From Pirellula staleyi DSM 6068 (lineage in GTDB: Bacteria > Planctomycetota > Planctomycetia > Pirellulales > Pirellulaceae), in NCBI GenBank assembly GCA_000025185.1, contig CP001848.1:1350001-1382000 (forward strand): DNA of 32,000 bases, given 5' to 3'. Both the position numbers and the translations under genes were made by a program. Positions within the stretch are counted from its first letter, which is position 1, and every line of letters starts with the position of its first letter. The notes below the pieces were generated by a model. The model was not told the origin of the DNA, searched no databases, and was given only the letters and a program-made list of their open reading frames with translations. Positions 6,663-32,000 of this stretch are shown in pieces.

Positions 6663-7137
6663 CCTCTGGTGAGGTCGCTTGCAGCGTCGCCAGGTCCGTG
6701 GCGAGAAGCTGCCGCTCGTCGGCCTTTTCGATCTCGTCGAGCAGCGCCGTCGCTTTCGCGCAAGCAGCTTCCGCCCGGTCGCGATCCTCTAGCAACCGGC
6801 ACGCTCGCGCCAGCGCTTCCAGGGCATAGCCCCTGTAGAACGGAGTCAGACTTTCGCTGATTTCTAGGCATTTTTCTGCATAATGGAGCGCTTTCGGTGG
6901 GTCGGAAGTCGACGCAAAGACGCGCGACATCAGCCAATATGCGACCGACATTTCTCGCGGCGAATAGTCGGGCCGCTGCATCCAGTGATAGAGCGATGCA
7001 TAGGCGCAGGCAATCATCTGCTCGTCGTCGGTGCCGCTGCGATGCGGTTTGTCGAGCCACTTCCAGGTCTCGTTGAAACAGGCGGCTGAGAAGTAGCGAT
7101 GCCCGCGTTCGACATCCAGTGGTGCCTCGCTGTTCAT
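6655..7137 (-). CDS. Hypothetical all-helical (TPR-like) protein, 160 aa
   Basis: ORF 6655..7176, with the ATG at 7137 (MNSEAPLD...) preferred over the upstream start. Helical repeat character. Lies 57 nt downstream of the kinase gene on the same strand. No family recognised. Confidence 0.55.
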   Translation of the reverse strand: MNSEAPLDVERGHRYFSAACFNETWKWLDKPHRSGTDDEQMIACAYASLYHWMQRPDYSPREMSVAYWLMSRVFASTSDPPKALHYAEKCLEISESLTPFYRGYALEALARACRLLEDRDRAEAACAKATALLDEIEKADERQLLATDLATLQATSPEAT

Positions 7138-7194
7138 GCCTGAAAACCTTAGGAGAAGAGGAAATCGCTGCAGCAAAACTTGGAGAGCGGCGCG

Positions 7195-17877: not shown

Positions 17878-18469
17878 CAGCCGCCTCGAAGGAGTGTTGC
17901 TCGCGAGTGAATTTGCCCCTGGTGAATCGCCAGGCGCGAGCTTGGGTGATGGGGCGAATTCTAGCGAGCGGGAGTCGCGCGCTGCAACGAAAAAACCAGC
18001 GGCTGAGAAATCGATGCACCAGAAAAACGACTTTAGTAGTTCTACTTTAGTAGTCGTAGTGGTTCGTTGAGACTCTGTCTCACTGATGCCGCGTTGTGGG
18101 AGCCTCGACAGCAGTCGCTTGCACCGGCGATTAGCGACCGCTCGATCCCGGCCATGATCGAAAAAAGGGCGGAAGTTTTCCTGGCTCTGCCTGAGGGGGT
18201 TAAGAGCCCAGGAAATGCGGTGCGGCTGGTGCGGTAACACTTGGGGTGTGCTGACCGTTTGTGGCAGTGAGCGAGACATGGTTTACGGTTAATGGCGTGG
18301 ATGTGGACCCTCTGGGGGCAAAGGTAGTTAGGGTGTGGGTGCAGTATGCGGTAGATGCGGGTAGTCGTATCGCCTGAAAAGGCGCTATCTATCCCACAAA
18401 GGGATGGTTTAGTTGCTTGACGGTGTTCGAACCGCTGATTATTCTCCCCCCCTGCACCACTCTGTACTT

Positions 18470-20767
18470 ATGGGGGATATTGCCGTGCCTCCCGCGCCGT
18501 CCAGGATTACGATTCGACAGCTGATTTCCGCCATGGAATCTGGGTCCCCTCTTGCGCCGCATGCTGTGCTGGGGGTGACTGAAGGTGAGACCTTGCCGGC
18601 GGTGATAGAGCAGGCGTATCGGCTGCGTGTGAGTGAGCTGGCGGGTGTGCGAAGCGAGCTTGGTGAGTCGCGTGTAGGCAAAGTGATGCGCGCGATTTCA
18701 GCCGCTAAGGTTCAGCTCACTTCGGCGCCTGGCTCAGCAGCCGCGGCGGTCGGTTTGCCAGTCAGGGGGGCGGCTCCAAGTGCTGCGCCGCTGCCAGAAC
18801 GCTCGTTTGCGTTGGGAGCTCCGCAAGGTCCTTCTCCACTGGGTAAGCCTGCTCTCTCCTCGGCTGTATCCTCGTCGCCGGAACACTCGTCGCCACTCGA
18901 TACGCTGCGGTTCAGTCCGTTGATGCTGGCGTTTGGGGGTGGTGCTGCGGTCGGTGTCGTCGTGCTGCTGCTGGTTGTGGTGGTGTGGTCGCTGAGTGGT
19001 TCGAAATCGCGCACGCCTGTAGCTGATGCAAACGCTGCGAGTAGCTTGCCGAGCCCCCTGTTTCCCAGTGTTCCGAGTTTGCCTCCTCCTCCGCCGCCCG
19101 TAGTCCCAGAGTTGCCCGTAGTCCCAGAGTTGCCCGTAGTCCCAGAGTTGCCCGTAGTCCCAGAGTTGCCTGTAGTCCCAGAGTTGCCTGTAGTCCCAGA
19201 GTTGAGTCAGCCGCCACCTCCGCAGCCAGCAGTGCCGGATGTGAGTGTGCCGGATGTAAGCACGCCACCACCTTCCGCTTCTTCGCCTGCGGTGAAATTG
19301 CCTCCCCCCCGACCAGCGTTCGGCTTTGGGGGTGGAGGTAGTCTCCCTTCCGACAGCGGCGCGGATGATACGGCAGGCGGTTTCTTTCCGTCGAGCCGTC
19401 CCGCTGGCTCAGAGCCAAAATCCGTTCCGAGTGCTGCCTCGCCCGGCAGCTTTTCGGGGGCTCCCTTTGGTGGTCAGCCTGCGACTCCTGTCGCAGGATC
19501 GTCCCGTCCCGCACTACCAGCCACCTCGAACGGTCCACCCGAGCGTTCGCTCTCCGATTTACTACCGGGTGGAAAGAGTAGTGAGTCAGGAACAGGAACA
19601 TCGAGCGCGAAGTCTCCCGCTGCTGTCGATTACAGCCCCACGCTGCAGTTGCCTCCGACAGGGAAGTCCGAACCGGTTCAACTCTTGGCCGGTGACTTTG
19701 CGAAGAGTGATTTAACGATCGATGGCTCGGCCGCCGAGTTAGATGGCAACTTGGTGTTTGCGATATCGAAGATCGCTGGCTCAGCGCCGCCGAGTTGGCG
19801 CATCGAAACCGTTCCTGGAGCTCCGCCCGTTGCAGCCAGCGGGGCTGATCGAGCCAAAGCAGCAGCGCCGTCGGTTTTCGCGCGGCCCGAATCGACAGGA
19901 CCGACGACCGTAGCGATATGCACGCTCGAATCGCGAGGCATTACGTTTCAGTGGGAGCCCCAAGTGGCGGCAACCACCGCTGGGCAACTCACGAACTGTT
20001 TGATCTATGTCACGACCGATCAGAAGTCGACGGTCTACTCGCTCCGGTCATACATCAATGCGTCGCGTGTTCCGCTCGACCTGTCGAAGTCGCCGCAGCG
20101 GATCGTAGTCCCTCTCGAGCATCTTCCGAAATCAGAACGGATCCGGCTCGAAGTGAGGCCGAAATCAGGTTTCGTCTCCACGCTGGAGATCGAGCCACCG
20201 GAAGGGAAAGTGGGAGTGAATCGTCGTCTGCGGATCGTTCCCAAGGCGGAGTACAACGTCGAGTTTCAGTTTGATTTGAGTTTACTTTCGGGCGAATTGA
20301 ATTTGTTTCATCGTCCATTCTTCTCGCTCGGCAATTCGCAGCGACAAGAGTTCACCACTGAGAAGCTCGAGAGCCTGGTCGCATCGACAAGTCTGAAGAT
20401 TCGTCGCGATATCGACCGCCACGATGAGCTGAAGCGAAGGTTGGGAGCGATTGGCGACGAGATCTCGCAGGCCAACTCGGCACGTGTCACGACGGCGCAG
20501 CGCAATGCGGTGCTGTCGCGTTTATTGCAAGAGCGCAAGTCTTCGATCAGCGGGATCGAGCGTCTCAGCCGATCGATTCCCACCACCCAAGAGGCGCTCG
20601 AGGCACTCGAGAACTACGCCAAGCTGGCCGAGCGACTTCACCTTGTGACGGAGGTGGAGGTGCGCATCACTGCCCTTGGGGAACATGGCGAGATTCCACT
20701 TTGGCTCGGCACGATGCCGGTAACGGTCGCACCCGAAGCGAGTGCCCCACGGAGGTCGGCATCGTAG
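18470..20767 (+). CDS. Hypothetical single-pass membrane protein: small N-terminal cytoplasmic domain, TM, long Pro-rich repeat linker, beta-rich ectodomain, coiled coil
   Basis: ATG at 18470 preferred (MGDIAVPP...). TM LMLAFGGGAAVGVVVLLLVVVVWSL. Six VVPELP repeats. C-terminal half has alternating beta-like pattern, then a heptad-rich segment. No family recognised. Confidence 0.7.
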   Translation: MGDIAVPPAPSRITIRQLISAMESGSPLAPHAVLGVTEGETLPAVIEQAYRLRVSELAGVRSELGESRVGKVMRAISAAKVQLTSAPGSAAAAVGLPVRGAAPSAAPLPERSFALGAPQGPSPLGKPALSSAVSSSPEHSSPLDTLRFSPLMLAFGGGAAVGVVVLLLVVVVWSLSGSKSRTPVADANAASSLPSPLFPSVPSLPPPPPPVVPELPVVPELPVVPELPVVPELPVVPELPVVPELSQPPPPQPAVPDVSVPDVSTPPPSASSPAVKLPPPRPAFGFGGGGSLPSDSGADDTAGGFFPSSRPAGSEPKSVPSAASPGSFSGAPFGGQPATPVAGSSRPALPATSNGPPERSLSDLLPGGKSSESGTGTSSAKSPAAVDYSPTLQLPPTGKSEPVQLLAGDFAKSDLTIDGSAAELDGNLVFAISKIAGSAPPSWRIETVPGAPPVAASGADRAKAAAPSVFARPESTGPTTVAICTLESRGITFQWEPQVAATTAGQLTNCLIYVTTDQKSTVYSLRSYINASRVPLDLSKSPQRIVVPLEHLPKSERIRLEVRPKSGFVSTLEIEPPEGKVGVNRRLRIVPKAEYNVEFQFDLSLLSGELNLFHRPFFSLGNSQRQEFTTEKLESLVASTSLKIRRDIDRHDELKRRLGAIGDEISQANSARVTTAQRNAVLSRLLQERKSSISGIERLSRSIPTTQEALEALENYAKLAERLHLVTEVEVRITALGEHGEIPLWLGTMPVTVAPEASAPRRSAS
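19100..19207 (+). repeat. In-frame 18-bp tandem repeat x6 (gtagtcccagagttgccc; encodes VVPELP), followed by a 15-bp x2 repeat at 19232-19261 (VPDVS)
   Basis: Units at 19100, 19118, 19136 (identical), 19154 and 19172 (c to t at the last base) and 19190 (degenerate end). Read directly from the sequence. Confidence 0.95.
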
Positions 20768-20773
20768 CGCGGG

Positions 20774-21505
20774 ATGAAACGAAATCAGGCGATATCCATG
20801 AGCACTTCAACCTTGAGAACATCGCAAGCCCCCAGGAAGCAGCAAGTGTCGGAACCACGAAAGATTTTGCTAAGGCCGCGTGCTCTGGCGCTGCTGATGA
20901 TGCTTGGAAGCCTGGCGCTGGGAGGCTGTTTCTCCCCGCCTCCGCCAAGCGAGCCGCCGCCGGCTGTCGAGAGCGAGTCCACCGATAGCCCAGCGCCAGC
21001 AAAAGCAGCGGAAGCCGCAACGGATCCAGCTGCTGAAGAGGCTCCGCCAAAGCCTGACAGCGAAACCGCTCCGCCTCCAGCGAGTGCGGGTGCAGAGGAT
21101 CCCGGCGCTGGTCAGCCGCCAGCGGCCAGCGGTGCTTCGAAAAACGACAAGTCGGGTCCCCAGGATCGCCCGAGTGGGATGGGACGCTCGCAAGCTGCTG
21201 CTGGAGATTTCGCGAGTTCGGCAGCTAAGGAGGCTGATAGCAAGCTGAGCCTAGCGGAAAGCGCGCGCTTAGCCGCGCAAATGCGCGCGAAAGCGCGTGA
21301 GCTGCAAGCCACCAATCCCGGCCAGGCGTTCGAGGCGGCACTGCGTGGCTGGCAGCTGACCTCGCGTTTTCCGGACGACCCGGCATGTGCTGCCATGCAT
21401 GGCGAGTTTGGTCGCATGCTCGACCTCCTGGGGACTCAAGCCAACAGCGGCCTAGGTGGTAGCACTCCCCCCTTACGAGCAAACGCCGAAACAATCATCG
21501 AATAG
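20774..21505 (+). CDS. Putative lipoprotein with acidic/Pro-rich low-complexity linker and small helical C-terminal domain
   Basis: Signal peptide ending in the lipobox LALGGC. Starts 6 nt after the stop of the preceding gene. An alternative start at the internal Met (MSTSTL) is possible. Confidence 0.65.
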   Translation: MKRNQAISMSTSTLRTSQAPRKQQVSEPRKILLRPRALALLMMLGSLALGGCFSPPPPSEPPPAVESESTDSPAPAKAAEAATDPAAEEAPPKPDSETAPPPASAGAEDPGAGQPPAASGASKNDKSGPQDRPSGMGRSQAAAGDFASSAAKEADSKLSLAESARLAAQMRAKARELQATNPGQAFEAALRGWQLTSRFPDDPACAAMHGEFGRMLDLLGTQANSGLGGSTPPLRANAETIIE

Positions 21506-21706
21506 CCATCATTATATGATTAGTAGTAAGTATCGATTTGAGATGCGTGAAGCAATGTTTGTGACTAATACCTAAATAAAAAATAACAATAGATTGAAGC
21601 TGCGGAGTGCATTGAGATCAAACTTATATCGCGTTCCTACGATACTCCCCACCGAATCTTCTGCCTGCACTAGCCCACCACCAACTTCCTGCAATAGCGA
21701 CCCACC
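21506..21706 (+). promoter_or_regulatory. AT-rich intergenic region, probable promoter for the GTPase sub-operon
   Basis: The 21506-21640 stretch is far more AT-rich (by eye about 30 % GC) than the about 62 % GC flanks and contains an aaataaaaaataacaa A-tract. It lies directly upstream of 21710. No sigma-factor motif is assigned. Confidence 0.35.
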
Positions 21707-21709
21707 GTG

Positions 21710-23002
21710 ATGTCGACGAAAGCCCCGCGCCAAGATCTACCGCGCAGCGATGACGTGAAAATTCGATTGCGTATCACCTGTCCGCATTGCTGGTCGAACT
21801 TTGCGACCGAAGATGTGCACTGGCTCACCGAGCACGAACTGCTGCGCGGCGATCCGATGCTTGGGCCCGATGCTCAGCAACGATTCTTGCCGACACGTTT
21901 CGACGTCGCCGGAAATGCCATCGATTCGAGCGGCATGACCTGCCAGAGCCTTGCCTGTCCTAAGTGCCATCTCACTTTGCCTCGCGTAATGATTGATATG
22001 GCCCCGGTATTTGTTTCGATCCTGGGAATTCCCTCGTGCGGCAAGTCCTATTTCTTGTCGTCGATGACGTGGCAGATGCGGCGCACTCTGCCACACTACT
22101 TTGCCATCGACTTTAGCGACGCCGATCCCGCCTCGAACGAAATCCTGAATCAGTACGAGCGACAGCAGTTTTTAAACGCTGATTCGCGTGCGATTGTGAA
22201 GCTCGACAAAACCGAAGAGCAAGGATACTGGTACGACGCGGTGCGTTATGGCGATCAGATCGTCAACTATCCGCGTCCTTTTCTCTTCGGGCTGCGACCT
22301 TTGTTTGGGCATCCCAGTTTTGAGAATCGGAGCGATGTCTCGCGCGTTCTCTGCATGTACGACAACGCGGGCGAGTCGTTTCAGCCCGGCAAAGATACAT
22401 CGGCCAACCCCGTCACGCGTCACTTGGCCCGTTCTCAAGCGATGCTGTTTCTATTTGATCCCACGCAAGACCATCGATTTCGCGCAGCGTGTGTCGGTCG
22501 CTCATCCGACCCGCAAATGACCTCCACGCGGGCTCAAGTCTATCGCCAAGATACCGTGCTTCACGAAGCAGCATCACGCGTGCGCAAATACACAGGACTT
22601 AAACACGACGAGCGTCATAATCGACCTTTAATTGTGGTTGTCACGAAATACGATGCTTGGGAACCGCTTCTCCCTGGTTTGTTAGATACACCTCCCTTCT
22701 TGCCGCAAAAGAGTGGTGCGGCTCATGCACTCGATTGGGAGCGTGTACGTGAGACCTCGGCGAAGCTTCGTCACCTCCTTTGGCAGCACTCGCCCGAATT
22801 GGTATCTGGGGCTGAAGCGTTTGCTCAAGAGGTGGTCTATGTGCCCGTCAGTGCCACCGGCTGTGCTCCGGTCACCAATGAGCAAGGAGCAATCGAGGGG
22901 ATGCGCACCGGAGATATCCAGCCGAAGTGGGTCGAGGTGCCGATGCTGGTGGTCCTCGCGCGATGGTCGAAAGGTCTGATTCCTTATAATCGTCGGACTT
23001 AG
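21710..23002 (+). CDS. Zn-ribbon-fused P-loop GTPase (TRAFAC-type, all G motifs present)
   Basis: CPHC...CPKC (nt 21779-21964). G1 GIPSCGKS (22025-22048). G3 DNAG (22361-22372). G4 TKYD (22643-22654). G5 SAT (22850-22858). Confidence 0.85.
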   Translation: MSTKAPRQDLPRSDDVKIRLRITCPHCWSNFATEDVHWLTEHELLRGDPMLGPDAQQRFLPTRFDVAGNAIDSSGMTCQSLACPKCHLTLPRVMIDMAPVFVSILGIPSCGKSYFLSSMTWQMRRTLPHYFAIDFSDADPASNEILNQYERQQFLNADSRAIVKLDKTEEQGYWYDAVRYGDQIVNYPRPFLFGLRPLFGHPSFENRSDVSRVLCMYDNAGESFQPGKDTSANPVTRHLARSQAMLFLFDPTQDHRFRAACVGRSSDPQMTSTRAQVYRQDTVLHEAASRVRKYTGLKHDERHNRPLIVVVTKYDAWEPLLPGLLDTPPFLPQKSGAAHALDWERVRETSAKLRHLLWQHSPELVSGAEAFAQEVVYVPVSATGCAPVTNEQGAIEGMRTGDIQPKWVEVPMLVVLARWSKGLIPYNRRT

Positions 23003-23058
23003 AAGGCGCTACTCACTGACGGTTGTACTTCATTGAATGTTCGGGAGAGGCTTGTTGT

Positions 23059-25593
23059 ATGTCGCAGGAGATTATTTATACATCCGCACCACAAGGCTTA
23101 CGCCCAGGTAGTTTTGGGTTTTGTATTGTGGCGATGACAACCGGAATGCCCACGCCTTTGGCCGAGCGGCTCGAGTCGTTGTCGGGGTATCGCCATGTCT
23201 ATTCCCCTGGCGATCCGCGCGCGGTGAATAATCCTGTCGTCCATTCGCATGTGCAGCTGAAGATCGGTGCTCAAAAGTATTTTGTCCTCTCGCGACTCGC
23301 AGACGCTGGTTTCGACTATTCGCAGCGCACCAACAAGCTGGTGCATCATGTGGCTCTCGAGCCATCAGAGCTGGTTCCGGCGGGACCAGCTTGGGTTCTT
23401 TCGCAGCCCGGATATATGGTCACCTCGTTCAGCGGACAGCCCCATTTGCTTCCGGCGGGACGTCGCACACCAGCGGGCGAGATTCCGCGCACCGTTTGTC
23501 ATCGCTGGGGAGAGTTGACCGGCGATCCAGGTTGGGGTGCGGTGCTGGCTTCGAGCGCGCTCACCGGGGGAGCACTCACGCCTGGTGCGGGACGCCCGGT
23601 CCATCTGATTGTTCCCGAGGGGCTCGATCCCTTGCCGCTGATCGTCGAAGCGCAGTCGCTTCTCCCTTCCCAGCGGCGCTGGGAGGTTTCGTTCTCCACC
23701 TTCTTCACACGCTTGCCCCCCGGCGTCGAGTGCCAGTGGCGCTGTGTCCTGGCGGGAACTCCCGAGGCGACCGCGCTGGCCGGAATGCGTGGCGATTTGG
23801 TGATCGATCTCACGCGTCCTCTCGGTCCTGCTCCCGACACTCCCCTCTCCGCTGCAGCCCGCACTGGCGTGTTTCCAGCCGAGCCTGCTCCAACCACTCG
23901 GGCGATTCCGACGACACAGGCAGCTCCGGTGCAGCTGGCTCGACCGGTGCGCGAGTCGGCTGCGGAGGAACTCCGTTTGGGGCCACCTCCGGCACCCGGC
24001 GGCGCAAGAGCTCGCACCAGCAGCAGCGGCGTGATGATCATCGACGACGGCCCCCCCGAGCTTCCTGGCGAAACGACTCCACCCCCGATGACGAGCCTCC
24101 ACCGACGAAGCGCGCCGTCCGCTGGATTTGGTTGGTCGCATCTGACAGCGGTCGCCATGGTGGCTGCGTTGGTGGGTGTGGTGGTGGGCTATCTTTTCCG
24201 TTCCTCGCAAACCGATCCCGCCCCGATCGCCACCCAAACAGCCGCCCCTGCAATTCCCGCTACCGACAACCAGCCCCCTGCTCCTCCCGCTGCAGCGGCT
24301 CCCGACCCTCAGCCTCCCGCCATGCCTTCACCAGCACCACCCGCTACTCCACCAGTCTCGCCAGTAGGTGAGAAGAATACGGCCAACGCCGAGAATCCGG
24401 CGTCAAAAAGCCCTACTGGCGATACTACTCCTGCGGCAGCAAATGGCGGGACTGCTCAGCCGATGCCCGCTGCAGAGAATCCGCCCACGCCATCAGTTCC
24501 CACGCCTGTCCCTGCACCCCCGGCGGTCGTCGAACTGAAGTACGGCCCCGAACCCCTCGAGTCGATCCTGGCGCTGAAGCATGGATCAGACCCGCGTGAG
24601 ATCAAGCTGGCTAGTTTTCCAAAATCAGACGGGAGCGCAATATCCAAGATTGAGCTTCTGGGCGCACCAAAGTCACTACGCATTGAGAAATCAAAGGATA
24701 ACTCTTGGGTGGTGCAGTTTAACAACGGAACAAAAATCGGGAGTGACATACCAACGGCCGAGTTTACTCAGGTCGAAGAAGGTAGTAGTTTCGCGCTGAT
24801 GGCATCTCAGCGGACGCCTGGAGTAGCATGGAATGATCTATGTGGTAGCGTGATTCAAGTGATTCACGAAAAAGGTCAAGAACATATCCTTTATCTAGTC
24901 AAGCCACATTTAGTTGTTACTAAACAAGGGAAAATATCGCCCTGTTTTGTGGAGTATAACATGCCTTATCTAGAGCTGATGGATAGGTTTGACAAAGAAC
25001 TTTTCTTTGATGTGTCTGATATACACATTGAAACCATTCCGAGTGGCAATTGGAAATCAGCTACGAAGGGCAGATGGCAGCATACATATGTATGTCATAA
25101 TGCGACTGAGATAGACACTCAGGTAGAGGCAGAATTCAGTGGGCAGCCTCGAAAAACAACAAAGATAGCAATTCGCGTGCGATTTCATCAGAAAGATTCA
25201 ACGAAGCTACTCGATGAAAATGCAATTCAGGACATCGGCAATCGGTTATCAAACTACAGGAAAGTATTTCTAGATGAGTGGGAGAAGGCAAAGCTAGACA
25301 GAGATAATGCAGAAAAGGATTTCAATGCTGAAGCAAAGCCAGAAGAGAAAGAGAAGAAGCGACAAAAGCTTGATGTATTGAAAAATAAATTTATCGAGAT
25401 CGATAGCAGTCGCGAACGTTTCGATTCGGATTACCCCAAAATAATTACTACATCAGAGGGACGAGAGGTCATCGCTTCACTTAGTAAAAATGCCTCCGCT
25501 AAGTCAGCTCCTAGAGCTAAGGTAACGATTGGACGTGAGATCAAGACCGAGTCGCAAAGTATTAAGGTGCCTTATTTGTTACTTGTGGATTAG
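23059..25593 (+). CDS. Single-pass membrane protein with GAP1-N-like (GTPase-associated protein 1 N-terminal-like) cytoplasmic domain, Pro-rich linker and low-GC extracytoplasmic C-terminal module
   Basis: ATG at 23059 preceded by gggagagg. The N-terminus MSQEIIYTSAPQGLRPGSFGFCIVAMTTGMP...LSGY resembles the xxYTS..GL..G..GF opening of GAP1-N-type domains; this is from memory and unverified. TM at nt 24130-24198. C-terminal beta-rich domain plus Lys/Glu coiled coil. Confidence 0.75.
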   Translation: MSQEIIYTSAPQGLRPGSFGFCIVAMTTGMPTPLAERLESLSGYRHVYSPGDPRAVNNPVVHSHVQLKIGAQKYFVLSRLADAGFDYSQRTNKLVHHVALEPSELVPAGPAWVLSQPGYMVTSFSGQPHLLPAGRRTPAGEIPRTVCHRWGELTGDPGWGAVLASSALTGGALTPGAGRPVHLIVPEGLDPLPLIVEAQSLLPSQRRWEVSFSTFFTRLPPGVECQWRCVLAGTPEATALAGMRGDLVIDLTRPLGPAPDTPLSAAARTGVFPAEPAPTTRAIPTTQAAPVQLARPVRESAAEELRLGPPPAPGGARARTSSSGVMIIDDGPPELPGETTPPPMTSLHRRSAPSAGFGWSHLTAVAMVAALVGVVVGYLFRSSQTDPAPIATQTAAPAIPATDNQPPAPPAAAAPDPQPPAMPSPAPPATPPVSPVGEKNTANAENPASKSPTGDTTPAAANGGTAQPMPAAENPPTPSVPTPVPAPPAVVELKYGPEPLESILALKHGSDPREIKLASFPKSDGSAISKIELLGAPKSLRIEKSKDNSWVVQFNNGTKIGSDIPTAEFTQVEEGSSFALMASQRTPGVAWNDLCGSVIQVIHEKGQEHILYLVKPHLVVTKQGKISPCFVEYNMPYLELMDRFDKELFFDVSDIHIETIPSGNWKSATKGRWQHTYVCHNATEIDTQVEAEFSGQPRKTTKIAIRVRFHQKDSTKLLDENAIQDIGNRLSNYRKVFLDEWEKAKLDRDNAEKDFNAEAKPEEKEKKRQKLDVLKNKFIEIDSSRERFDSDYPKIITTSEGREVIASLSKNASAKSAPRAKVTIGREIKTESQSIKVPYLLLVD

Positions 25594-25664
25594 CCGTGAC
25601 GTTTGCGATGTGGTGGATGTCACAGGTCACGTAAGATTCAAGTAAATTTGTTAGTGAGTTGGTT

Positions 25665-28628
25665 ATGCTTGATTATCAGCGGATTGTGGAAGAGATTCAG
25701 GCGGCGATTCATTCGCAGGGCACGCTCGATTGGGATTTGCTGCGCGATGCGTCCGCCGAATATGCCGCTGCTTGCGACGAAGTGAACACCCGGCTCGAGC
25801 GGATCAGTAAGCTGCTGCGGCAAGGACTTCGAAGCGAGGCGATTCAGCTCGCCGATTTGGAGCCCCCGCTGCTCGATTCAGCGGCAATCCTCGATTTTCC
25901 CGAGCTTCCCGAGTGGGTTCAGCTGCTGACGATCAACGGCATGGTTCCGCCCCCTGCGATTCGGATCGAAATTGCCAGCGATCTCAATGCGGCCTATGCC
26001 CTGGAAGCGCCGCTGATGGCGCATCTGAAATCGCACCGACTTCTGGCCCTCGCTCGTGCTCCCCTCACTGTCCGCATTCAAACCTTGCGACAGATTCACC
26101 GGGCCGATGCGCATAACCCGATCTGGGCCACTGATCTCACGATCCTAGAAACTGCGCGACAAACCGAGGTCGCCCGGCAGGCTGAAGAGTGCACCACCAG
26201 TCGACACTTGCCAGCGCTCGAGCAACTTTGCCACGAGCTTGCCATGCCCGACTGGCTAGCGCAGCCACGTCGCGACTTCATCGATTCGATTGCCAGGCGC
26301 CGCGATCGTTTGGTGGTCGTACAGGCTCGCGAGAAACTGGAGGCGATCGAAGGGGAACTCGCCAACTGCTATGGCGCGTTCGATGTCGCAGCTGGTCGTG
26401 CAGCGCGCGACGCTTGGAATAGGGAAGCGGCCAAGGCGGGACTCTTGGCCGACGATCCACTGGCTCAAGCGGCAACTCCCGCACTCGCCTGGCTCGCCGA
26501 ACAAGATCGTCGCGAAGCGCGGGATCGCGAGTTCGCAATCGCTGTCGATAACCTCGAGCGGGCACTCGAAGAAGAAAAAGATCGCGCGACACTCACGCGT
26601 CTGTTTCACGCTATAGAACGGCTCGAGCAACGTCCTCCCGATCTCTTGTTGCGGCGCTATCACGAACAGATGCGGCAGTTCGAAACCGATCAGCGGCGCC
26701 GCTTTGTTCTGATCACCTCTGCCACCGTCCTCGCCTTGCTGCTTGTTGCCGGTGGGATCAGCTGGGTGGCAATCCGGGCGAGCGAACACCGCCGCATGCT
26801 CGCGACAGCAGAACAGCTACGTCAGCTGATTGATAGCTCGCAGTGGAAACAGGCGTCTGAGCTTTTGGCGCAGCTGCAAGTCAGCGACCCGCGTATCGCG
26901 CAGGCGACCGAAATTCAGTCGCAAAATGTTCGTCTGCAGGAGCTCGAAAAAGCGGAGTCCGAACGTCGTGCGGCGTTCGAGCAGTATCTGCAGCAGGCAC
27001 GCAGCTCCGATCCCGAGCGCCCCGATCGTCTGGCGCTCTCGGAGGCCAAAAAGGTGGCCATCGGAGCTGCAGAGAAAGCCGACGTTGCTCGACTCGAGTC
27101 CGAGTTTGCCAGTCTCGATCGCGCTCGGCAACAAAAGCGAGATTCCGAGTTCCAAGCTTCGCTGGAAACGATTTTGTTCGGAGTTGAGAAGGTCGAGGCG
27201 ACGCTGGCCGACGATCCGGTTGCGCCAGTCAAGGAGCTCGCGCAGCTGGTTGCTGAGATCGATGCACTTGGGAAAAGTACCGGTGGTGTCTCGACCTCTT
27301 TGATCGCGCAGCTGGCACCACTCAAGCTGCGGCTCACGTCGCTTCAGCAGCAGCGTGCGGCGCGTATGGACGAGTATCGCGCGCTCGAACAGTTGACGAC
27401 GCATATTGGTCAGCCCGAGGCCTACCAAAGTGCGCTGCAGAAGTTTGTCGAGAAGTTTCCGACATCGCCGCTGGCGATAGAGTTTGCACGAACGACAGCC
27501 GAACTGCCGTACTGGGAAGTGCAGGAGCGGTGGCGAAAACTACTTGGACAAAAGGCCTTTCGAAGCTTGCCTAACGTCCAGCCGCTCGAGGCTGCCAAGC
27601 TCCTCGAGGAGGCGAATGAAATTCAGCTGTTTGGTCAGCCATCGCCACTCGCTGAAAAGTTTGATGCGAAGCGAAAGTATCTGCAAGGAATCGCCGACCG
27701 ACTAGACGACGATGGTCAGCCGATTGTGAAACAGCTCGATGAAGTCTTTAAAGATGTGTTCATCACGGGACTTTGGTACGTCGAAGCAACGGGTGGCGAT
27801 CGCTATTACTTGTCAAAAAGTTTCGAGCAGTATCTTGCAAAACCGGGTGAAACGATTGGATTTGAACATATCGTTTCATTTGACTTGCAAACGCTGACGA
27901 AGCGACACCCAAGAAGCGGGATCGCGCGGCATGGTACGGCGCCGCAAGCAGCTTTAGCGAGCGCCGCGCGAACGCATCTGGCGATCGTCACCAACGGCGA
28001 TTGGGAGAAAGGGATGTATGGTCTGCTCCGCGCGACACTCGACGACAGCGAGACCGATCCGCTGCTGAAGTTCATCTTGGTGCAGCGCATTTTGGAGACA
28101 GCCGAGACAGGGAGTCACTCCATTGCCGAAGCGCTGGGGCCTTCCATCGCGCGGGTGAAAGGGGCCGATGTCGATGTCACGGCCAACTGGCTCTTGCCGA
28201 CCGATGCAGCGGCAGCAGCAGCGCGGCTGAAAGCGCGAGCCCTCTTGGGATCGCTTAGCGATCTATCGAGCGAGGCGCGCAAAGCGGCAGAAATTCTGCG
28301 CGCTGATACGAGTCCCATCGAGGTTCCTCCGGAGTGGATTGGCGTGCTCGTTCCGATCGGCGAAGGACGCTGGAAATGCCTCGGAAGTCCGCAAGTAGCT
28401 GTGGGGGAACTCTATGTCATCGATCCGACTGCCGAGAAGTCGGCGGGTGGAATTTGGCAGCGCGTGGGGACTTACGATCGAGCCAAAACGACCTGGCAAA
28501 ACGGAACATCGAACTCGATGGCGGCGGGGCGACCCTTGTACTTGGTGACTCGGGGGCCGGGGGCGCTCAGCTCTCCTGCTGACCAGCCGAGTGAAGTTTC
28601 CAGCCGCCGTTCCGAGCGACTGCAATGA
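25665..28628 (+). CDS. Large all-helical single-pass membrane protein (987 aa): about 345-aa cytoplasmic helical domain, TM, about 615-aa extracytoplasmic helical/coiled-coil domain
   Basis: ATG at 25665 (MLDYQRIVEEI). TM FVLITSATVLALLLVAGGISWVAI at nt 26703-26774. Heptad-rich Ala/Glu/Arg/Gln sequence on both sides. No family recognised. Confidence 0.8.
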   Translation: MLDYQRIVEEIQAAIHSQGTLDWDLLRDASAEYAAACDEVNTRLERISKLLRQGLRSEAIQLADLEPPLLDSAAILDFPELPEWVQLLTINGMVPPPAIRIEIASDLNAAYALEAPLMAHLKSHRLLALARAPLTVRIQTLRQIHRADAHNPIWATDLTILETARQTEVARQAEECTTSRHLPALEQLCHELAMPDWLAQPRRDFIDSIARRRDRLVVVQAREKLEAIEGELANCYGAFDVAAGRAARDAWNREAAKAGLLADDPLAQAATPALAWLAEQDRREARDREFAIAVDNLERALEEEKDRATLTRLFHAIERLEQRPPDLLLRRYHEQMRQFETDQRRRFVLITSATVLALLLVAGGISWVAIRASEHRRMLATAEQLRQLIDSSQWKQASELLAQLQVSDPRIAQATEIQSQNVRLQELEKAESERRAAFEQYLQQARSSDPERPDRLALSEAKKVAIGAAEKADVARLESEFASLDRARQQKRDSEFQASLETILFGVEKVEATLADDPVAPVKELAQLVAEIDALGKSTGGVSTSLIAQLAPLKLRLTSLQQQRAARMDEYRALEQLTTHIGQPEAYQSALQKFVEKFPTSPLAIEFARTTAELPYWEVQERWRKLLGQKAFRSLPNVQPLEAAKLLEEANEIQLFGQPSPLAEKFDAKRKYLQGIADRLDDDGQPIVKQLDEVFKDVFITGLWYVEATGGDRYYLSKSFEQYLAKPGETIGFEHIVSFDLQTLTKRHPRSGIARHGTAPQAALASAARTHLAIVTNGDWEKGMYGLLRATLDDSETDPLLKFILVQRILETAETGSHSIAEALGPSIARVKGADVDVTANWLLPTDAAAAAARLKARALLGSLSDLSSEARKAAEILRADTSPIEVPPEWIGVLVPIGEGRWKCLGSPQVAVGELYVIDPTAEKSAGGIWQRVGTYDRAKTTWQNGTSNSMAAGRPLYLVTRGPGALSSPADQPSEVSSRRSERLQ

Positions 28629-29667
28629 ACGTGGCGAATCGAATGTTTCAGGGGGGCCACTGTTCCCCCTCACCACTCCCCACCGAACCTCCTTCCACCC
28701 CCGACGTGCTCCATTGACCGATCAGTTTTACATTCGAATTCGTGGGCGTGTGCAAGGCCCGTTTGATAGCGAAAAGTTACGTGGACTCGCGCGGCGTGGC
28801 CAGTTCAGCAGGCTCTATGAAGTCTCGCGCGATGGCCAAACATGGCAGCCAGCGAAGGACTTTCCCGAACTCTTCGCGGCACCAGCAGCGCAGGTTGCGC
28901 AGCCAGCAGCAGCGCAAACCACTGCGGCTCCCTCCGCTGCATCGTCGAAGGGGAACTCGGCATCCAGCGGTGGAGGATACAGCTTACAATCCCCCGCGCC
29001 GCAAAACGCAACGAGCGCGGCCACTTGGTACTACGCCTATCAAGGTCGCGAGCAAGGACCGATCGATTTTAACACGCTGGCCAGCATGTTCAGCTCACGG
29101 CAGTTAGCGCCGGAAACTGAGGTCTGGAGTCAGGGGATGATCAACTGGACTCCGGCCCAAAACGTGCCCGGCCTCGTACCGCCACAAGCGCCGACCAAGA
29201 GCAGCATGGGAGTGAGTTCCTATAGCACCGAGAGTGTCCGTAGCGAAACCGAACAGGTCTCGGCCGCGACCATCCGCGCACTGACCGACTCGAGACCTTG
29301 GGTCGCGTTCATTGCGATCATCGGATTCCTCTACGCCCTTCTGACCCTCCTCAGCGGCGTGTTTCAGCTGATCGTTGGAGCAAGGTCGGGCGTATTTCCA
29401 GTCACTGCGAGTGGACTCACGACGATTGTGATGTCACTGGTGATTGCCTTCGGTGCTTGGCTGCTGGTGAGTTTCGGAAGTGCCATTTCGAACGTCGAAC
29501 GCTCGCGCCGTGAGGCGTCTCTCGTTCGGGCTTTGTCGACACTCAAATCCTTTTGGGTTTATATCGGCGTGGTCTTAATTGTCATCCTTACGTTTGTGAT
29601 TCTAGGAGTCATTCTCGTTATTTCAGTCGCAGGGACGATTGCAGGGTCCTTTCCCGAGCTTGATTGA
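28591..29667 (+). CDS. Double GYF_2-domain protein with polytopic membrane C-terminus (true start possibly TTG at 28714)
   Basis: GYF_2 no. 1 FYIRIRGRVQGPFD...GQTWQPAKDFPELF (nt 28723-28875). GYF_2 no. 2 WYYAYQGREQGPID...VWSQGMINWTPAQNVPGL (nt 29026-29175). At least 3-4 hydrophobic helices in the last 130 aa. The GTG at 28591 would overlap the upstream gene by 38 nt. Confidence 0.8.
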   Translation: MKFPAAVPSDCNERGESNVSGGPLFPLTTPHRTSFHPRRAPLTDQFYIRIRGRVQGPFDSEKLRGLARRGQFSRLYEVSRDGQTWQPAKDFPELFAAPAAQVAQPAAAQTTAAPSAASSKGNSASSGGGYSLQSPAPQNATSAATWYYAYQGREQGPIDFNTLASMFSSRQLAPETEVWSQGMINWTPAQNVPGLVPPQAPTKSSMGVSSYSTESVRSETEQVSAATIRALTDSRPWVAFIAIIGFLYALLTLLSGVFQLIVGARSGVFPVTASGLTTIVMSLVIAFGAWLLVSFGSAISNVERSRREASLVRALSTLKSFWVYIGVVLIVILTFVILGVILVISVAGTIAGSFPELD

Positions 29668-29747
29668 AAACCAACGCTGGCGCTTCAGTTGCTCATGATA
29701 ATATTTATTAATATACATTCTATCGCATCATATTAGGCAGGTGGATT
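29668..29747 (+). promoter_or_regulatory. AT-rich spacer, possible internal promoter for the MotA/ExbB-like sub-operon
   Basis: catgataatatttattaatatacattctatcgcatcatattagg is strongly AT-rich against GC-rich flanks. It is followed by aggcaggtgg and GTG at 29748. Confidence 0.3.
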
Positions 29748-30638
29748 GTGGCTTCAAGTTATGAGACGGCACTCGCCGCAAAAACGCTTGCCGATCATCC
29801 GGCGCTCTGCTGGTCCCGGATGGACCTCGAGCAGCGGGTCGGATTTCGTGGCGGCCGATTCACAAAAGTGAACAACTGGCTGGCTTTTTTGATCGCGGCG
29901 GTGGCCACCGTTCTCTTCTATACGGTGGTGATTGTTGCCCGGCAATTTCCGTTCACCCATTCGATGCGCGGTCTGCTCGACTCGTTCACCGATCGCGGTC
30001 CAACCCCTTATGCGATCGTCGCGTTTTCCTGGTGGGCGATTGCGATCCTCCTACTGAAGTGGCGGAAGCTTGCCTTTCAAAAACGATCGCTCACCTATGA
30101 CGTGGTCCCTCGCGATCACGATTTTGTCCTTTCCATTCCAACAGCCGACCGTGTAATTGAGCATATGCATTTGGTAGCCGACGATCCCCGTCACTTTGTT
30201 CTTTATAACCGTATGATGATCGCCCTCTCGAACATGAAAAACCTGGGACGAGTCGCCGATCTTGATGAGATCCTCCGTTCGCAAGGGGAGCATGATGAGT
30301 CGTCGATGGAAACAAGCTACTCGCTGGTGCGCGGGCTTCTCTGGGCGATTCCGGTGCTTGGGTTCATCGGCACGGTGCTCGGACTTTCCGAAGCCATTGG
30401 CGGGTTTAGCAATGTCTTGACCACCGCTACCGACATCTCTTTGGTGCTCGATGCACTGAAGGTTGTTACGGCGGGACTCGCGACCGCTTTTGAAACGACA
30501 CTGCAGGCTCTGGTGGCTGCACTCGGCATTCAAATGCTCCTCACCTTTATCAAAAAGGGAGAAGAGGAATTTTTGGATCAGTGCAGCGATTACTGTATGC
30601 GGCGACTTGTGAGTCGTTTGCGTTTGTCCCCGACGTAA
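29748..30638 (+). CDS. MotA/TolQ/ExbB-family proton-channel protein
   Basis: Conserved C-terminal core LWAIPVLGFIGTVLGLSEAIGGF...GLATAFETTLQALVAALGIQMLL (nt 30321-30557), typical of MotA_ExbB. Two N-terminal TM helices precede a cytoplasmic insert. Confidence 0.85.
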   Translation: MASSYETALAAKTLADHPALCWSRMDLEQRVGFRGGRFTKVNNWLAFLIAAVATVLFYTVVIVARQFPFTHSMRGLLDSFTDRGPTPYAIVAFSWWAIAILLLKWRKLAFQKRSLTYDVVPRDHDFVLSIPTADRVIEHMHLVADDPRHFVLYNRMMIALSNMKNLGRVADLDEILRSQGEHDESSMETSYSLVRGLLWAIPVLGFIGTVLGLSEAIGGFSNVLTTATDISLVLDALKVVTAGLATAFETTLQALVAALGIQMLLTFIKKGEEEFLDQCSDYCMRRLVSRLRLSPT

Positions 30639-30653
30639 CGAAAGGATCGTGCG

Positions 30654-31484
30654 ATGGGACGACGTACCGCGCAAGCACCTTTCTCCCTCTTTTCGTTTCA
30701 AGACATCATCACCTCGGTCACCGGGATTGTGGTCCTGATGCTGCTGGTGATGGCGCTGGAACTCGCGAGCCGCAAGTTGCAAGCGCCAGCCGTGCAGCAA
30801 TCGATCACGCGCGAAGATACACGCGCTGCGCTCTCGGCGGCACAGACCAAAATCCAAGAGCTGCAGCGGATGCTCGAGTCGAGCGACTGGAGCGAGCTTG
30901 CCTCACGAACCCCGACCGAGTTTGCTATCGAACAGGAAGTTTTGACGCGGCAGATTCCCCTTCTGAAGTCCGATCTCGCCGCGGCCAAGCGTCGCGTCGC
31001 TGAGCTCGAGCGACAAGAAAAAGCTGCTCACGACCAGTGGAACGCTCGGGGTAAAGACCGCCAGCAGCTAGAACGAATGGAGGCCGAAATCGGGGCCCTC
31101 GAGGCGAAGCTGAAGAAAGTGCAAAAGTCGGGTACGCTGGTCTATCGCGCGGGGCCACGCGAGTCGCGACAGCCGTGGATCATCGAGTGTACGGCCGCTT
31201 CGATTAGCGCCGCTCCTTTGGGGCCGATATCGAAGCCACTGCAGTTTGTTGGGAGCGATTCTCTTTCGCGCATTCGTCAGGTCGAGGCCTGGGCCAAAGG
31301 CTTGTCGCGCAGCGAGGTCTATCTCGTTTTGATGGTGAAACCGGGCGGGGCTGAGACCGCAACCATCCTCGAGGAGAAGCTGCGCGATTTGGGACTCGGT
31401 GTCGGACTCGATCTTATCGGCAGCGATCAGGCGGCGATCGACCCCGAAGAAGGGGCACCAGTCGTCGAGGAGCCGGCTCGATGA
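30654..31484 (+). CDS. ExbD/TolR/MotB-like N-terminal anchor (Asp17 at TM edge) fused to a coiled coil and C-terminal globular domain
   Basis: FSFQDIITSVTGIVVLMLLV has an Asp at the cytoplasmic edge of a single TM (nt 30702-30704), the same arrangement as ExbD D25, TolR D23 and MotB D32. Followed by a heptad-rich segment. Starts 15 nt after the MotA-like gene. Confidence 0.7.
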   Translation: MGRRTAQAPFSLFSFQDIITSVTGIVVLMLLVMALELASRKLQAPAVQQSITREDTRAALSAAQTKIQELQRMLESSDWSELASRTPTEFAIEQEVLTRQIPLLKSDLAAAKRRVAELERQEKAAHDQWNARGKDRQQLERMEAEIGALEAKLKKVQKSGTLVYRAGPRESRQPWIIECTAASISAAPLGPISKPLQFVGSDSLSRIRQVEAWAKGLSRSEVYLVLMVKPGGAETATILEEKLRDLGLGVGLDLIGSDQAAIDPEEGAPVVEEPAR

Positions 31485-32000
31485 GGCGAAAAACACTCGA
31501 CACCAGCGACAGCCTGGAGCTGCTGCTCGACACCATCTCGAACGCCTTTGGAGGGATTCTGTTCCTCGCGCTGCTGGTCGGTTTACTGCTGCAAATGTCG
31601 CATCGCCCTTCAGCCCCGGTAGAAGTCGACCCCCAGGCAGAAGTGGAGATGATCGAGCTCGACGCCGCCTTGACCGAAGCACTTGCGCAACTGGAATCGC
31701 TCGAGCGCTCGGTTGCGCTGCAGCGGCAATCGCGCGAGCGATTGGTCGACCCCAGCACCGAGCAGATCGCCGCCGAGGTGCGCGCGTCGCGCGCCGAGGT
31801 TAGTGACCTCGAGAAGAAAATCGAGGCTGCCCGCAAGAGTGCCAGCACTACCCAGGTGGAGATCGACGCACTGCGCCGCAGTTCGACGGAGCTCGATAGC
31901 AAACTGGCCACAGCCAAAACCGATCAGGCGGAAGTTGCCAGTCGACTGAAGCGCGAGCAGCTGTTGCGTTCGCAAGTGATAGCGCCTCCCCGAACGCGTG
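31481..32000 (+). CDS. Second Asp-in-TM (Asp17) anchor + coiled-coil protein, 3'-partial (runs off the window)
   Basis: Not in the ORF track because no stop occurs in the window. My translation from the ATG at 31481 is open to 32000: MRRKTLDTSDSLELLLDTISNAFGGILFLALLVGLLL..., then coiled coil. The ATG overlaps the upstream stop (ATGA, 31481-31484). Asp17 codon at 31529-31531. Confidence 0.7.
   Translation, partial: MRRKTLDTSDSLELLLDTISNAFGGILFLALLVGLLLQMSHRPSAPVEVDPQAEVEMIELDAALTEALAQLESLERSVALQRQSRERLVDPSTEQIAAEVRASRAEVSDLEKKIEAARKSASTTQVEIDALRRSSTELDSKLATAKTDQAEVASRLKREQLLRSQVIAPPRTR

Follow-up and report, generated by a model that had tools for sequence, protein, structure and literature searches.

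Why should a planctomycete chromosome carry a GTPase and its GAP1-like partner, a pair classed among conflict systems, in one row with the subunits of a membrane motor? The question is raised by a 32,000-nt stretch of the Pirellula staleyi DSM 6068 chromosome (contig CP001848.1, positions 1,350,001 to 1,382,000; hereafter the window), in which nine plus-strand open reading frames (ORFs), here called A to I in their order, run from 18413/18470 past position 32000 in the Psta_1114 region, with opposite-strand genes on both sides. An earlier interpretation made from the DNA letters alone (the sequence-only reading) had taken these genes for one candidate undescribed system. Our comparison across genomes indicates that C to I belong together as a single unit, and we consider it moderately probable that they encode a sensor-switch-motor machine with a chromosomal envelope function.

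Linkage was followed from both ends of the cluster. On the GTPase side, one genome per GTDB species was scanned with an alignment of the GTPase (protein C), which gave at least 542 loci, the best 80 of which were analysed; on the motor side, metagenomes were scanned with an alignment of the channel subunit (protein G), and the best 80 of 566 relatives were analysed (loci are numbered with the prefix L). In the 80 species genomes, C-D-E-F is collinear wherever the DNA suffices. Among loci of the long type, which have a full-length E, G-H-I stands immediately downstream in 17 of the 29 that offer at least 3 kb after F, and five shorter loci also show G; taken together, the trio lies directly downstream in about 22 of 34 informative long-type loci. 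Seen from G, 61/63 cases have H downstream and 47/49 have I; on the upstream side F occurs in 39/48, E in 28/29 and the GTPase gene in 15/17. Because of this near-obligate linkage on the motor side and the variant architectures described below, an independent assortment of the stretches 21710-29667 and 29748 onward is refuted. The trio is almost never found away from GTPase, GAP1, E or GYF genes, and the proposal of a single unit stands for C to I.

The gene order is also kept in L122, whose GTPase is only 36% identical. In a metagenomic lineage of low guanine-cytosine content (GC), a fusion of FHA, GYF and DO-GTPase and a 475-aa GAP1-N2/M protein are directly followed by G and H, with neither E nor F (L116:2343-6655); the FHA domain of this fusion hints at a phospho-threonine input. 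A short type of locus, found in Planctomycetaceae and Fuerstiella, combines C, a D without transmembrane (TM) helix and residues 1 to ~375 of E, cytoplasmic domain included, with a GYF-T2SSE ATPase of the PilB/GspE type (L059:4027-5931 and equivalents in L052-54, L064, L066, L070, L073 and L078-80), and has no F-G-H-I. Further arrangements were observed among these loci. In L122 (8209-9887) the equivalent of F joins two GYF domains to a membrane domain of the RDD family; next come a DUF2752 protein and the motor genes. A Planctomycetaceae contig (L065:1-17150) shows E-G-H-I, a second H-I pair and C-D-E, with duplicated motor genes upstream of the GTPase. GTPases of the same family (47-49% identical) that lack a GAP1 gene directly downstream occur in L038, L041, L043, L045, L049, L057 and L058 and may be paralogs or parts of broken operons; in L041 and L049 the lone GTPase lies two ORFs upstream of a shared predicted ORF of ~850-890 aa (cluster 35).

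The GTPase loci are nearly all labelled Planctomycetota and cover Pirellulales, Planctomycetales, Isosphaerales and Gemmatales. GTPase identity descends in tiers that follow taxonomy, from 86% and 77% in relatives of Pirellula to 45-54% across orders, and C and G evolve slowly (86% and 80% identity where H and I reach 51-55%). A scan of IMG/VR viral contigs with the GTPase alignment gave no relatives, and the window holds no tRNA gene. Upstream of the cluster the window encodes ApbE, a flavin mononucleotide-binding protein, an Fe-S protein, a NACHT NTPase, a Ser/Thr kinase, a LysR regulator and others, and these genes are not conserved beside the cluster in other genomes. The pattern fits a vertically inherited chromosomal system.

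The GTPase and its GAP1 partner are C and D. Protein C is a 100% match to Psta_1114, with 1737 homologs in the database search. Against the Pfam family DO-GTPase2 (PF19993) it scores 26.4 bits (E = 6e-6), just under the gathering score of 27, and the database's precomputed Pfam column assigns PF19993 to it. The P-loop GIPSCGKS (107-114), the Walker B/G3 motif YDNAGE (218-223) with the glutamate of the family, TKYD (313-316) and SAT (382-384) are all present. Across 25 homologs G107, G112, K113, YDNAGE (with E223), T313, K314, D316 and S382 are invariant, and the same holds for the Zn-ribbon cysteines C25/C28 and C84/C87 (CPHC/CPKC). C shows what defines a DO-GTPase, namely a TRAFAC GTPase domain with the Walker B glutamate, together with the Zn ribbon that is often present in such proteins, and the invariant columns bear out its first description as a Zn-ribbon GTPase with a full motif set. 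D, encoded directly after C, combines GAP1-N2 (residues 1-128, 23059-23442; 99.1 bits) with GAP1-M (residues 153-253, 23515-23817; 53.1 bits), each against a gathering score of 24. The N-terminus had been noted as GAP1-N-like, which the GAP1-N2 match confirms, and the order of a GTPase followed by GAP1-N2 and GAP1-M is that expected of such a system. No Pfam match, GAP1-C included, was found past residue 253 at E <= 0.1; this part consists of a proline-rich juxtamembrane linker (~255-361), a TM helix (362-380) and an orphan ectodomain. In 41 orthologs the TM position is conserved (median 341); proline accounts for 15.2% of the linker (median) vs 6.2% in the background.

At the other end of the cluster, G matches the Pfam family MotA_ExbB (PF01618) with 36.2 bits (gathering score 22.9), as expected of an A-type channel subunit. 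Its TM hairpin motifs IPVLGFIGTVLGL and GLATAFETT are invariant across homologs, and over this hairpin hhalign finds E. coli TolQ (E = 5e-5), ExbB (E = 1e-4) and, much less well, MotA (E = 0.027); the hairpin motifs of TolQ and ExbB sit in the last two TM helices of G. H consists of a short basic cytoplasmic N-terminus, a TM helix with the invariant motif FxFQDIxT, ~115 aa of periplasmic coiled coil and, at the C-terminus, an alpha/beta domain; I likewise starts with a short basic stretch and has the motif SLxLLLDTxxNxFGG, a long coiled coil and the same C-domain. The aspartates at the N-terminal edge of the TM helix are invariant, D17 of H in 47 homologs and D16 of I in 16. H and I are paralogous over their full length (hhalign, 98.9% probability, E = 2.7e-17), and both have the single N-terminal TM helix, the conserved aspartate and the position beside an A-subunit that characterize B-subunits. 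In the AlphaFold 2 (AF2) model of H (mean predicted local distance difference test, pLDDT, 83; C-domain > 90) the C-domain has the order beta-beta-beta-alpha-beta-alpha-beta, the same as TolR. Searches of PDB sequences gave no relative for the G profile and only coiled-coil noise for the H and I profiles. With the Pfam match of G and the invariant D17 and D16, the earlier assignment of a MotA/ExbB channel with two coiled-coil partners bearing an aspartate in the TM helix was upheld.

Between switch and motor lie E and F. F has two cytoplasmic GYF_2 domains (Pfam, 99.6 bits) followed by 3-4 TM helices by hydropathy, just as the sequence-only reading had described it, and this pairing of GYF domains with a TM-rich region is the one published for a planctomycete sub-variant. 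The GYF domain of the GYF-T2SSE ATPase in short-type loci is 50-58% identical to GYF1 of F. Since GYF recurs in F, in the FHA-GYF-GTPase fusion and in the GYF-T2SSE variants, we regard it as the element that always links the switch to a mechanical output. E comprises, in its AF2 model (pLDDT 86), a cytoplasmic all-helical N-domain (1-340), a TM helix (349-367), periplasmic helical repeats and two small beta domains; its first description as a 987-aa all-helical protein holds for the length (~987-989 aa) and the mostly helical fold, and fails for the beta domains. Full-length E (~960-1000 aa) is kept in the long-type loci of Pirellulales, Isosphaeraceae, Gemmataceae and some Planctomycetaceae. 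The cytoplasmic domain of E probably belongs to the switch core. A fold search with the E model returned only generic alpha-solenoid/TPR matches with template-modelling scores (TM-scores) <= 0.16, and E has no Pfam match; an identification with GASH, the all-helical partner of which E had been suggested as a possible counterpart, or with another named domain was dropped. GASH is moreover tied to GAP1-N1 and not to GAP1-N2 systems (Kaur et al., 2020; PMC7159879).

The genes A and B, which had been counted among the nine, are only loosely part of the conserved set, and both evolve fast. A has a cytoplasmic N-domain that is unique to it, a TM helix, a proline-rich linker and a beta-rich and coiled-coil ectodomain module (~499-764 of the 784-aa ORF); its start is uncertain (18413 TTG, 18470 ATG, or 18547/18562 according to gene callers). 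The C-terminal module recurs in A-like upstream genes of L004, L005, L013 and L001, and in other genomes it is the ectodomain of GAP1 itself (L050, 268 bits; L011, L036, L010 and L087). Because of this fusion, A is tied to the system. A relation between the module and the window's own D ectodomain was not significant in hhalign. The 18-nt repeat of A could vary in copy number between strains. B has a signal peptide, a lipobox cysteine, a long acidic and Pro/Ser-rich linker and a small conserved C-terminal helical domain. An iterative hidden Markov model (HMM) of B collected 23 members, most with the lipobox cysteine, and those checked immediately precede the GTPase gene in the same orientation; a B-like match inside a D-like ORF of L089 falls into the low-complexity half of the model and was discarded. 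The membership of the pair (18470-21505) in the cluster is looser than that of C to I.

Gene calls independent of the window were available from assembly L163, 97-98% identical to it, and reproduce all nine (A 735, B 234, C 430, D 848, E 987, F 317, G 296, H 276 and I 303 aa) between a minus-strand ApbE gene upstream and a minus-strand glycogen phosphorylase gene downstream. On the strength of these calls and the minus-strand flanks, I is taken as the last gene of the cluster, ending at ~32392 just past the window. Re-derived ORFs and these gene calls agree with the nine genes and the spacing first reported for them: A-B 6 nt, B-C 201 or 204 nt (GTG 21707 or ATG 21710), C-D 56 nt (ATG 23059), D-E 71 nt (ATG 25665), E-F an overlap or 85 nt, F-G 80 nt, G-H 15 nt and H-I a 4-nt overlap. 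For F the start at 28714 is the most likely, because homologs align only from residue 42-46 of the longest ORF and the independent call has 317 aa. Hydropathy gives one TM helix each in A, D, E, H and I, 3-4 in F and ~4 in G, besides the signal peptide and lipobox of B, so that C is soluble and the other eight proteins are membrane-anchored, as had been proposed. Several domain guesses had been offered for profile search, and the Pfam scan returned GAP1-N2/M, DO-GTPase2, GYF and MotA_ExbB; it assigned no family to A, B, E, H and I, and an NCBIfam scan of the cluster proteins gave no match near the cut-offs. A promoter and terminator scan of the region stayed at chance level (15 terminator-like structures vs 13.6 expected). 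Coordinates are collected in Table 1.

Table 1. Features of the cluster in the window (position 1 is the first nucleotide of the window).
Feature	Position	Strand	Description	Basis
A	18470..20767	+	single-pass membrane protein	ORF, hydropathy TM, module recurrence in other loci
Tandem repeat in A	19096..19204	+	18 nt, 6.1 copies, 98% matches; encodes (PVVPEL)n of the periplasmic linker	
B	20774..21505	+	predicted lipoprotein	iterative HMM, 23 members
C	21707..23002	+	Zn-ribbon TRAFAC GTPase, DO-GTPase2 family, Psta_1114	Pfam, invariant columns
D, cytoplasmic part and TM	23059..24198	+	GAP1-N2, GAP1-M, Pro-rich linker, TM	Pfam, hydropathy
D ectodomain (codons ~503-844) and D-E spacer	24567..25652	+	hypervariable cassette, AT-rich	replaced in L163
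E	25659..28628	+	989-aa bitopic protein	homolog alignments, AF2 model
F	28714..29667	+	two GYF_2 and 3-4 TM; longest ORF from 28591	Pfam, hydropathy, L163 call
G	29748..30638	+	MotA/ExbB/TolQ-superfamily channel subunit	Pfam, invariant columns, hhalign
H	30654..31484	+	candidate stator 'B' subunit	alignments, AF2 model, fold search
I	31481..32000 (window edge; full gene 303 aa, to ~32392)	+	H paralog	hhalign, L163

From these parts we propose one envelope-spanning machine, vertically inherited across the Planctomycetia, in which a membrane-tethered GTPase switch would control a dedicated motor driven by the proton-motive force (PMF). C, D (with GAP1-N2/M) and the cytoplasmic helical domain of E would form a nucleotide-dependent switch at the inner face of the cytoplasmic membrane, and the periplasmic ectodomain of D would be the input that reads a periplasmic cue. 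The GYF domains would couple the switch to its output, probably via the proline-rich juxtamembrane linker of D, in the way GltJ works with AglZ. The switch would then recruit or gate a G5(HI) motor, and proton flow would power the H/I stalk, which would do mechanical work on the outer membrane or within the periplasm. A, the lipoprotein B and the conserved portion of E outside the cytoplasmic membrane may complete the periplasmic assembly. The data show the domain identities, the topology, the conserved linkage, the fusion variants, the paralogy of H and I and the hypervariable ectodomain; we infer the physical interactions, the binding of GYF to the proline-rich linker, the 5:2 stoichiometry, the rotation and the biological role, and a 5:2 motor action of G-H-I is suggested by analogy with known motors. 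Concerning the role, we lean towards the dynamics of a polar organelle or surface structure, outer-membrane handling during budding, or uptake, rather than towards abortive-infection defence; this is the weakest step of the argument. In the essential-gene paper on P. limnophila, the main text does not mention the cluster genes, a statement limited to the text, as the tables were not matched by locus tag.

Several observations weigh against this proposal. G reaches only 15.8 bits against the TolQ family model of NCBIfam, with a cut-off of 221. The best PDB fold match of H is E. coli TolR (5by4), which is weak (E = 3.5e-3, target-normalised TM-score 0.49, rmsd 8 A), and the hhalign comparison of H and I with E. 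coli TolR was not significant. Among 19 H and 16 I members there was no Pfam match to ExbD/TolR (PF02472), MotB or ZorB at E <= 1. G-H-I could be placed in no named motor family, and since H and I show no profile link to ExbD, TolR or MotB, we call the trio a divergent TolQ/TolR-like unit with a heteromeric B component. Besides, 12 long-type loci, e.g. in Rhodopirellula, Stieleria and Singulisphaera, lack G-H-I downstream of F at the locus itself. The role of E is a guess because the protein has no recognisable relatives. Finally, the outputs differ by lineage (the motor trio, a PilB-like ATPase or GYF-trypsin neighbours) and the sensor domain of D is replaced between conspecific strains, both of which are more typical of conflict systems than of housekeeping.

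Part of the cluster has been described before. Kaur, Burroughs, Iyer and Aravind (eLife 2020; PMC7159879) reported a core of GTPase, GAP1-N2 and a double-GYF/TM-rich protein for planctomycetes, with some of these systems coupled to a GYF-pair gene fused to trypsin or to a TM-rich region, and classed GAP1-N2 systems as conflict systems. C, D and F are, in view of this published core, a described computational variant, and the cluster is not wholly undescribed. The text of that paper contains no mention of MotA, ExbB, TolQ, 'stator' or PilB, and one of its supplementary files none of MotA, ExbB, GYF or Pirellula staleyi. A literature search found no later work or experimental follow-up on GAP1-N2/DO-GTPase systems. 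The claim of a candidate undescribed system therefore fails for the core and stands for the link to the motor; what is new comprises the dedicated motor trio, E as a partner, an ATPase as alternative output and the replacement of the ectodomain at strain level. With the published GAP1-N2 systems our cluster shares the Zn-ribbon TRAFAC GTPase with Walker B glutamate, followed by a GAP1 protein with N2 and M, a C-terminal TM helix and an extracytoplasmic extension, the rapidly diversifying extracytoplasmic element and, with the planctomycete sub-variant, the GYF-pair gene fused to a TM-rich region. In contrast, it has one GTPase instead of a pair, no detectable GAP1-C and no FNIII-repeat component (Pfam gave no FNIII match for the nine proteins); the ectodomains of D and A, beta-rich and fast-evolving, could take the functional place of the latter. 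It differs further in E (989 aa) and in the MotA/ExbB-like gene with two TolR-like paralogs, or the GYF-PilB-type ATPase in short-type loci, and in that the core is kept across the whole class and not patchy.

The sequence-only reading had also named no described system that joins a GTPase/GAP1-like pair to a 5:2-type motor; it overlooked how a GTPase is joined to such a motor in the gliding of Myxococcus xanthus. There GltJ binds through its GYF domain to a proline-rich segment of AglZ and through its linker to MglA-GTP, and a GTPase is in this way connected to the TolQR-like AglRQS motor, made of one A-type and two B-type subunits (PMC11135422). The logic of this focal-adhesion machinery is the same as that proposed here: a cytoplasmic switch formed by a GTPase, a membrane protein whose GYF domain faces the cytoplasm and binds a proline-rich partner, and an envelope-spanning, PMF-driven TolQR-like motor with one channel subunit and two different single-pass subunits bearing an aspartate. 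The parts are different, as MglA is Ras-like and C a DO-GTPase2, and the cluster has no MglB, AglZ or Glt protein; the GltJ model scores only 14.9 bits against F (cut-off 450), over the GYF region only, and the cluster is not recognised as an Agl-Glt machinery. AglQ and AglS, moreover, have no long coiled coils like those of H and I, and there is no evidence of gliding here.

A comparison with Tol-Pal and ExbB-ExbD-TonB gives a similar picture. The hairpin motifs of G in its last two TM helices, the N-terminal TM helix of H and I with its edge aspartate and the TolR-like topology of their C-domain are shared. The scores are below the family thresholds, however, with no match to TolR, TolA or TonB profiles; H and I carry a coiled-coil insertion of ~115-130 aa and are heteroparalogs, the unit is coupled to GTPase/GAP1, and the partners TolA, TolB, Pal and TonB are absent. 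With Zorya the cluster has in common a subunit of the MotA/ExbB superfamily and aspartate-bearing partners linked to cytoplasmic signalling, and sensing of the envelope state is conceivable. In contrast to Zorya, G (296 aa) has no long ZorA tail, H and I have no peptidoglycan-binding domain, and there is no ZorC, ZorD or ZorE, so the cluster is not a Zorya system.

The strongest competitor of the envelope machine is a conflict or immune system. In such a system the D ectodomain would respond to an invader or a non-self cue, with the GTPase setting a threshold and a GYF-tagged output acting as effector or transducer in a Zorya-like manner, which we regard as possible but doubtful; with the same reserve, the output would be a PMF channel or motor in Pirellula and a PilB-like ATPase or a trypsin-like protease elsewhere. 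The family assignment of GAP1-N2 and DO-GTPase2 favours this explanation, and its strongest point is the hypervariability of the D ectodomain. Between 24650 and 25600 the GC of the window falls to 0.40-0.45, with surroundings of 0.58-0.68, and the cassette 24567-25652 as a whole has 0.43 vs 0.60-0.64 in its flanks. Compared with L163, the DNA is 97.4% identical up to 24566 and 98.5% from 25653, and the 1086 nt between these sharp breakpoints cannot be aligned. As proteins, the two versions of D share ~99% identity in residues 1-500 and ~30% in the ectodomain, while C and G are 100%, F 99.1%, E 98.8% and H 97.5% identical; both ectodomain alleles have a GC of ~0.43-0.44.

This replacement is not confined to one pair of strains. 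D of L039 and L042 is 94% identical in the cytoplasmic part and 19% in the ectodomain, whereas L029 and L030 (95%) have retained the ectodomain at 88%. The ectodomains of 61 D orthologs fall into 44 similarity clusters, and in 58 of the 61 their GC is below that of the locus; likewise, in 58/61 the GC at third codon positions (GC3) is below that of the first 250 codons of the same gene. The periplasmic part of E shows no GC or GC3 dip of this kind. Only three relatives of the ectodomain were found among 1.84 billion representative proteins, and no flanking repeats could be found around the cassette. These data point to repeated exchange of alleles, or to diversifying evolution, in the periplasmic sensor of D. 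The fast evolution of A and B, the lineage-dependent GYF-tagged outputs and the weak similarity of G to ZorA1 (PADLOC, 19.3 bits, E = 9e-5, residues 187-274, i.e. the TM hairpin only) also speak for a conflict role, and frequent Ser/Thr kinase neighbours together with the FHA fusion suggest a signalling input.

The genomic context does not follow suit. We scanned 102 ORFs immediately flanking the cluster in 40-odd genomes with PADLOC and Pfam. The 25 best-populated of the 46 PADLOC families matched are all of kinase type (PD-T4-6, mad6, MkoA, C3a189) with 7 ORFs each, which equals the number of Pkinase-bearing ORFs by Pfam; Pfam also marks seven ORFs as trypsin-like and five as bearing GYF_2, and the remainder are miscellaneous housekeeping genes. 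The flanks of the cluster are not defence islands. Among the cluster proteins themselves, PADLOC gave only the ZorA1 match of G and coiled-coil noise for the other eight, and Pfam found no nuclease, pore toxin or NADase. Together with the lack of viral relatives, this leaves the Zorya-like defence first suggested for the cluster without contextual support, and it is the hypervariable GAP1 ectodomain that still keeps a conflict role alive. Conservation that is broad, syntenic and seemingly vertical throughout the orders of Planctomycetia, together with the slow evolution of C and G, further speaks against defence; long stalks and folded heads of H and I would be unnecessary for a simple depolarising effector, and the defence role of GAP1-N2 systems is itself a computational prediction only.

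Some neighbouring genes deserve mention in their own right. In the flanks of L001, L007, L015, L031, L033, L036, L046, L050 and L058 and in the window at 7195-10080, Ser/Thr kinases are frequent (as a raw count, 7/102 immediately flanking ORFs) and GYF-trypsin proteins lie beside several loci. The minus strand of the window encodes a small TPR protein (6655-7176), the Ser/Thr kinase just named (961 aa) and a 963-aa NACHT NTPase (10270-13161); this set may be a signalling or conflict module of the STAND type (signal transduction ATPases with numerous domains) unrelated to the cluster. Another pair in the window consists of an Mg-chelatase/ComM-like AAA+ protein (1435-3057) and, after it, a 497-aa protein that has a HIRAN domain at its C-terminus (3090-4583).

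Less probable than a conflict system is an energiser of the TonB/Tol kind for uptake or outer-membrane maintenance, in which G-H-I would pass PMF energy on to the periplasm or outer membrane, the ectodomains of D and A would be adaptors for substrates or partners and the part of the GTPase would be limited to regulating assembly. The closest relations of G are to TolQ and ExbB, the C-domain of H is TolR-like, the coiled coils of H and I span the periplasm, the conservation resembles that of housekeeping genes, and variable ectodomains could track variable substrates. We nevertheless think it improbable, since no gene for TonB_C, TolA, TolB, Pal or a TonB-dependent receptor was found in the cluster or its vicinity, the scores stay under every family cut-off and the substitution by a GYF-PilB-type ATPase is left unexplained. 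That two or three unrelated operons (A-B; C-D-E-F; G-H-I) merely lie side by side in Pirellula is scarcely credible and, for C to I, already largely refuted: the gap before C, the 12 long-type loci without the trio and the poor conservation of A are outweighed by the near-obligate linkage on the motor side, which persists at 36-37% GTPase identity and in the fused, shortened L116, by short F-G gaps across loci with no excess of terminator-like structures, and by other genomes in which GAP1 carries the ectodomain module of A.

The envelope machine can be taken one step further, to a version that we consider unlikely in its full extent, though better placed than the energiser. In this class-wide, vertically inherited machine a DO-GTPase/GAP1 switch would gate, via GYF, 5:2 PMF motors of a subfamily not recognised before (a TolQ-like G and, as a heterodimer on coiled-coil stalks, the TolR-like H and I) and thereby drive a core envelope process independent of FtsZ, such as budding or division, the dynamics of polar organelles or crateriform structures, or the uptake of macromolecules. 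Its periplasmic sensor would be kept hypervariable by recombination, owing to exposure to phages or other antagonists.

To our knowledge, GAP1-N2/DO-GTPase systems are known only from one comparative-genomics paper. In its planctomycete version such a system appears as a conserved chromosomal fixture, whose GYF-coupled output is a TolQ/TolR-like proton motor and elsewhere a PilB-type ATPase, in parallel to the logic of MglA-GltJ-AglRQS in Myxococcus with unrelated parts. Planctomycetes form a phylum without FtsZ, and the cluster is a candidate for a part of their unexplained envelope biology, as well as a genetically tractable candidate for a bacterial GTPase that gates a PMF motor. In this sense the locus offers a test of whether a system classed under 'conflict' is really housekeeping.

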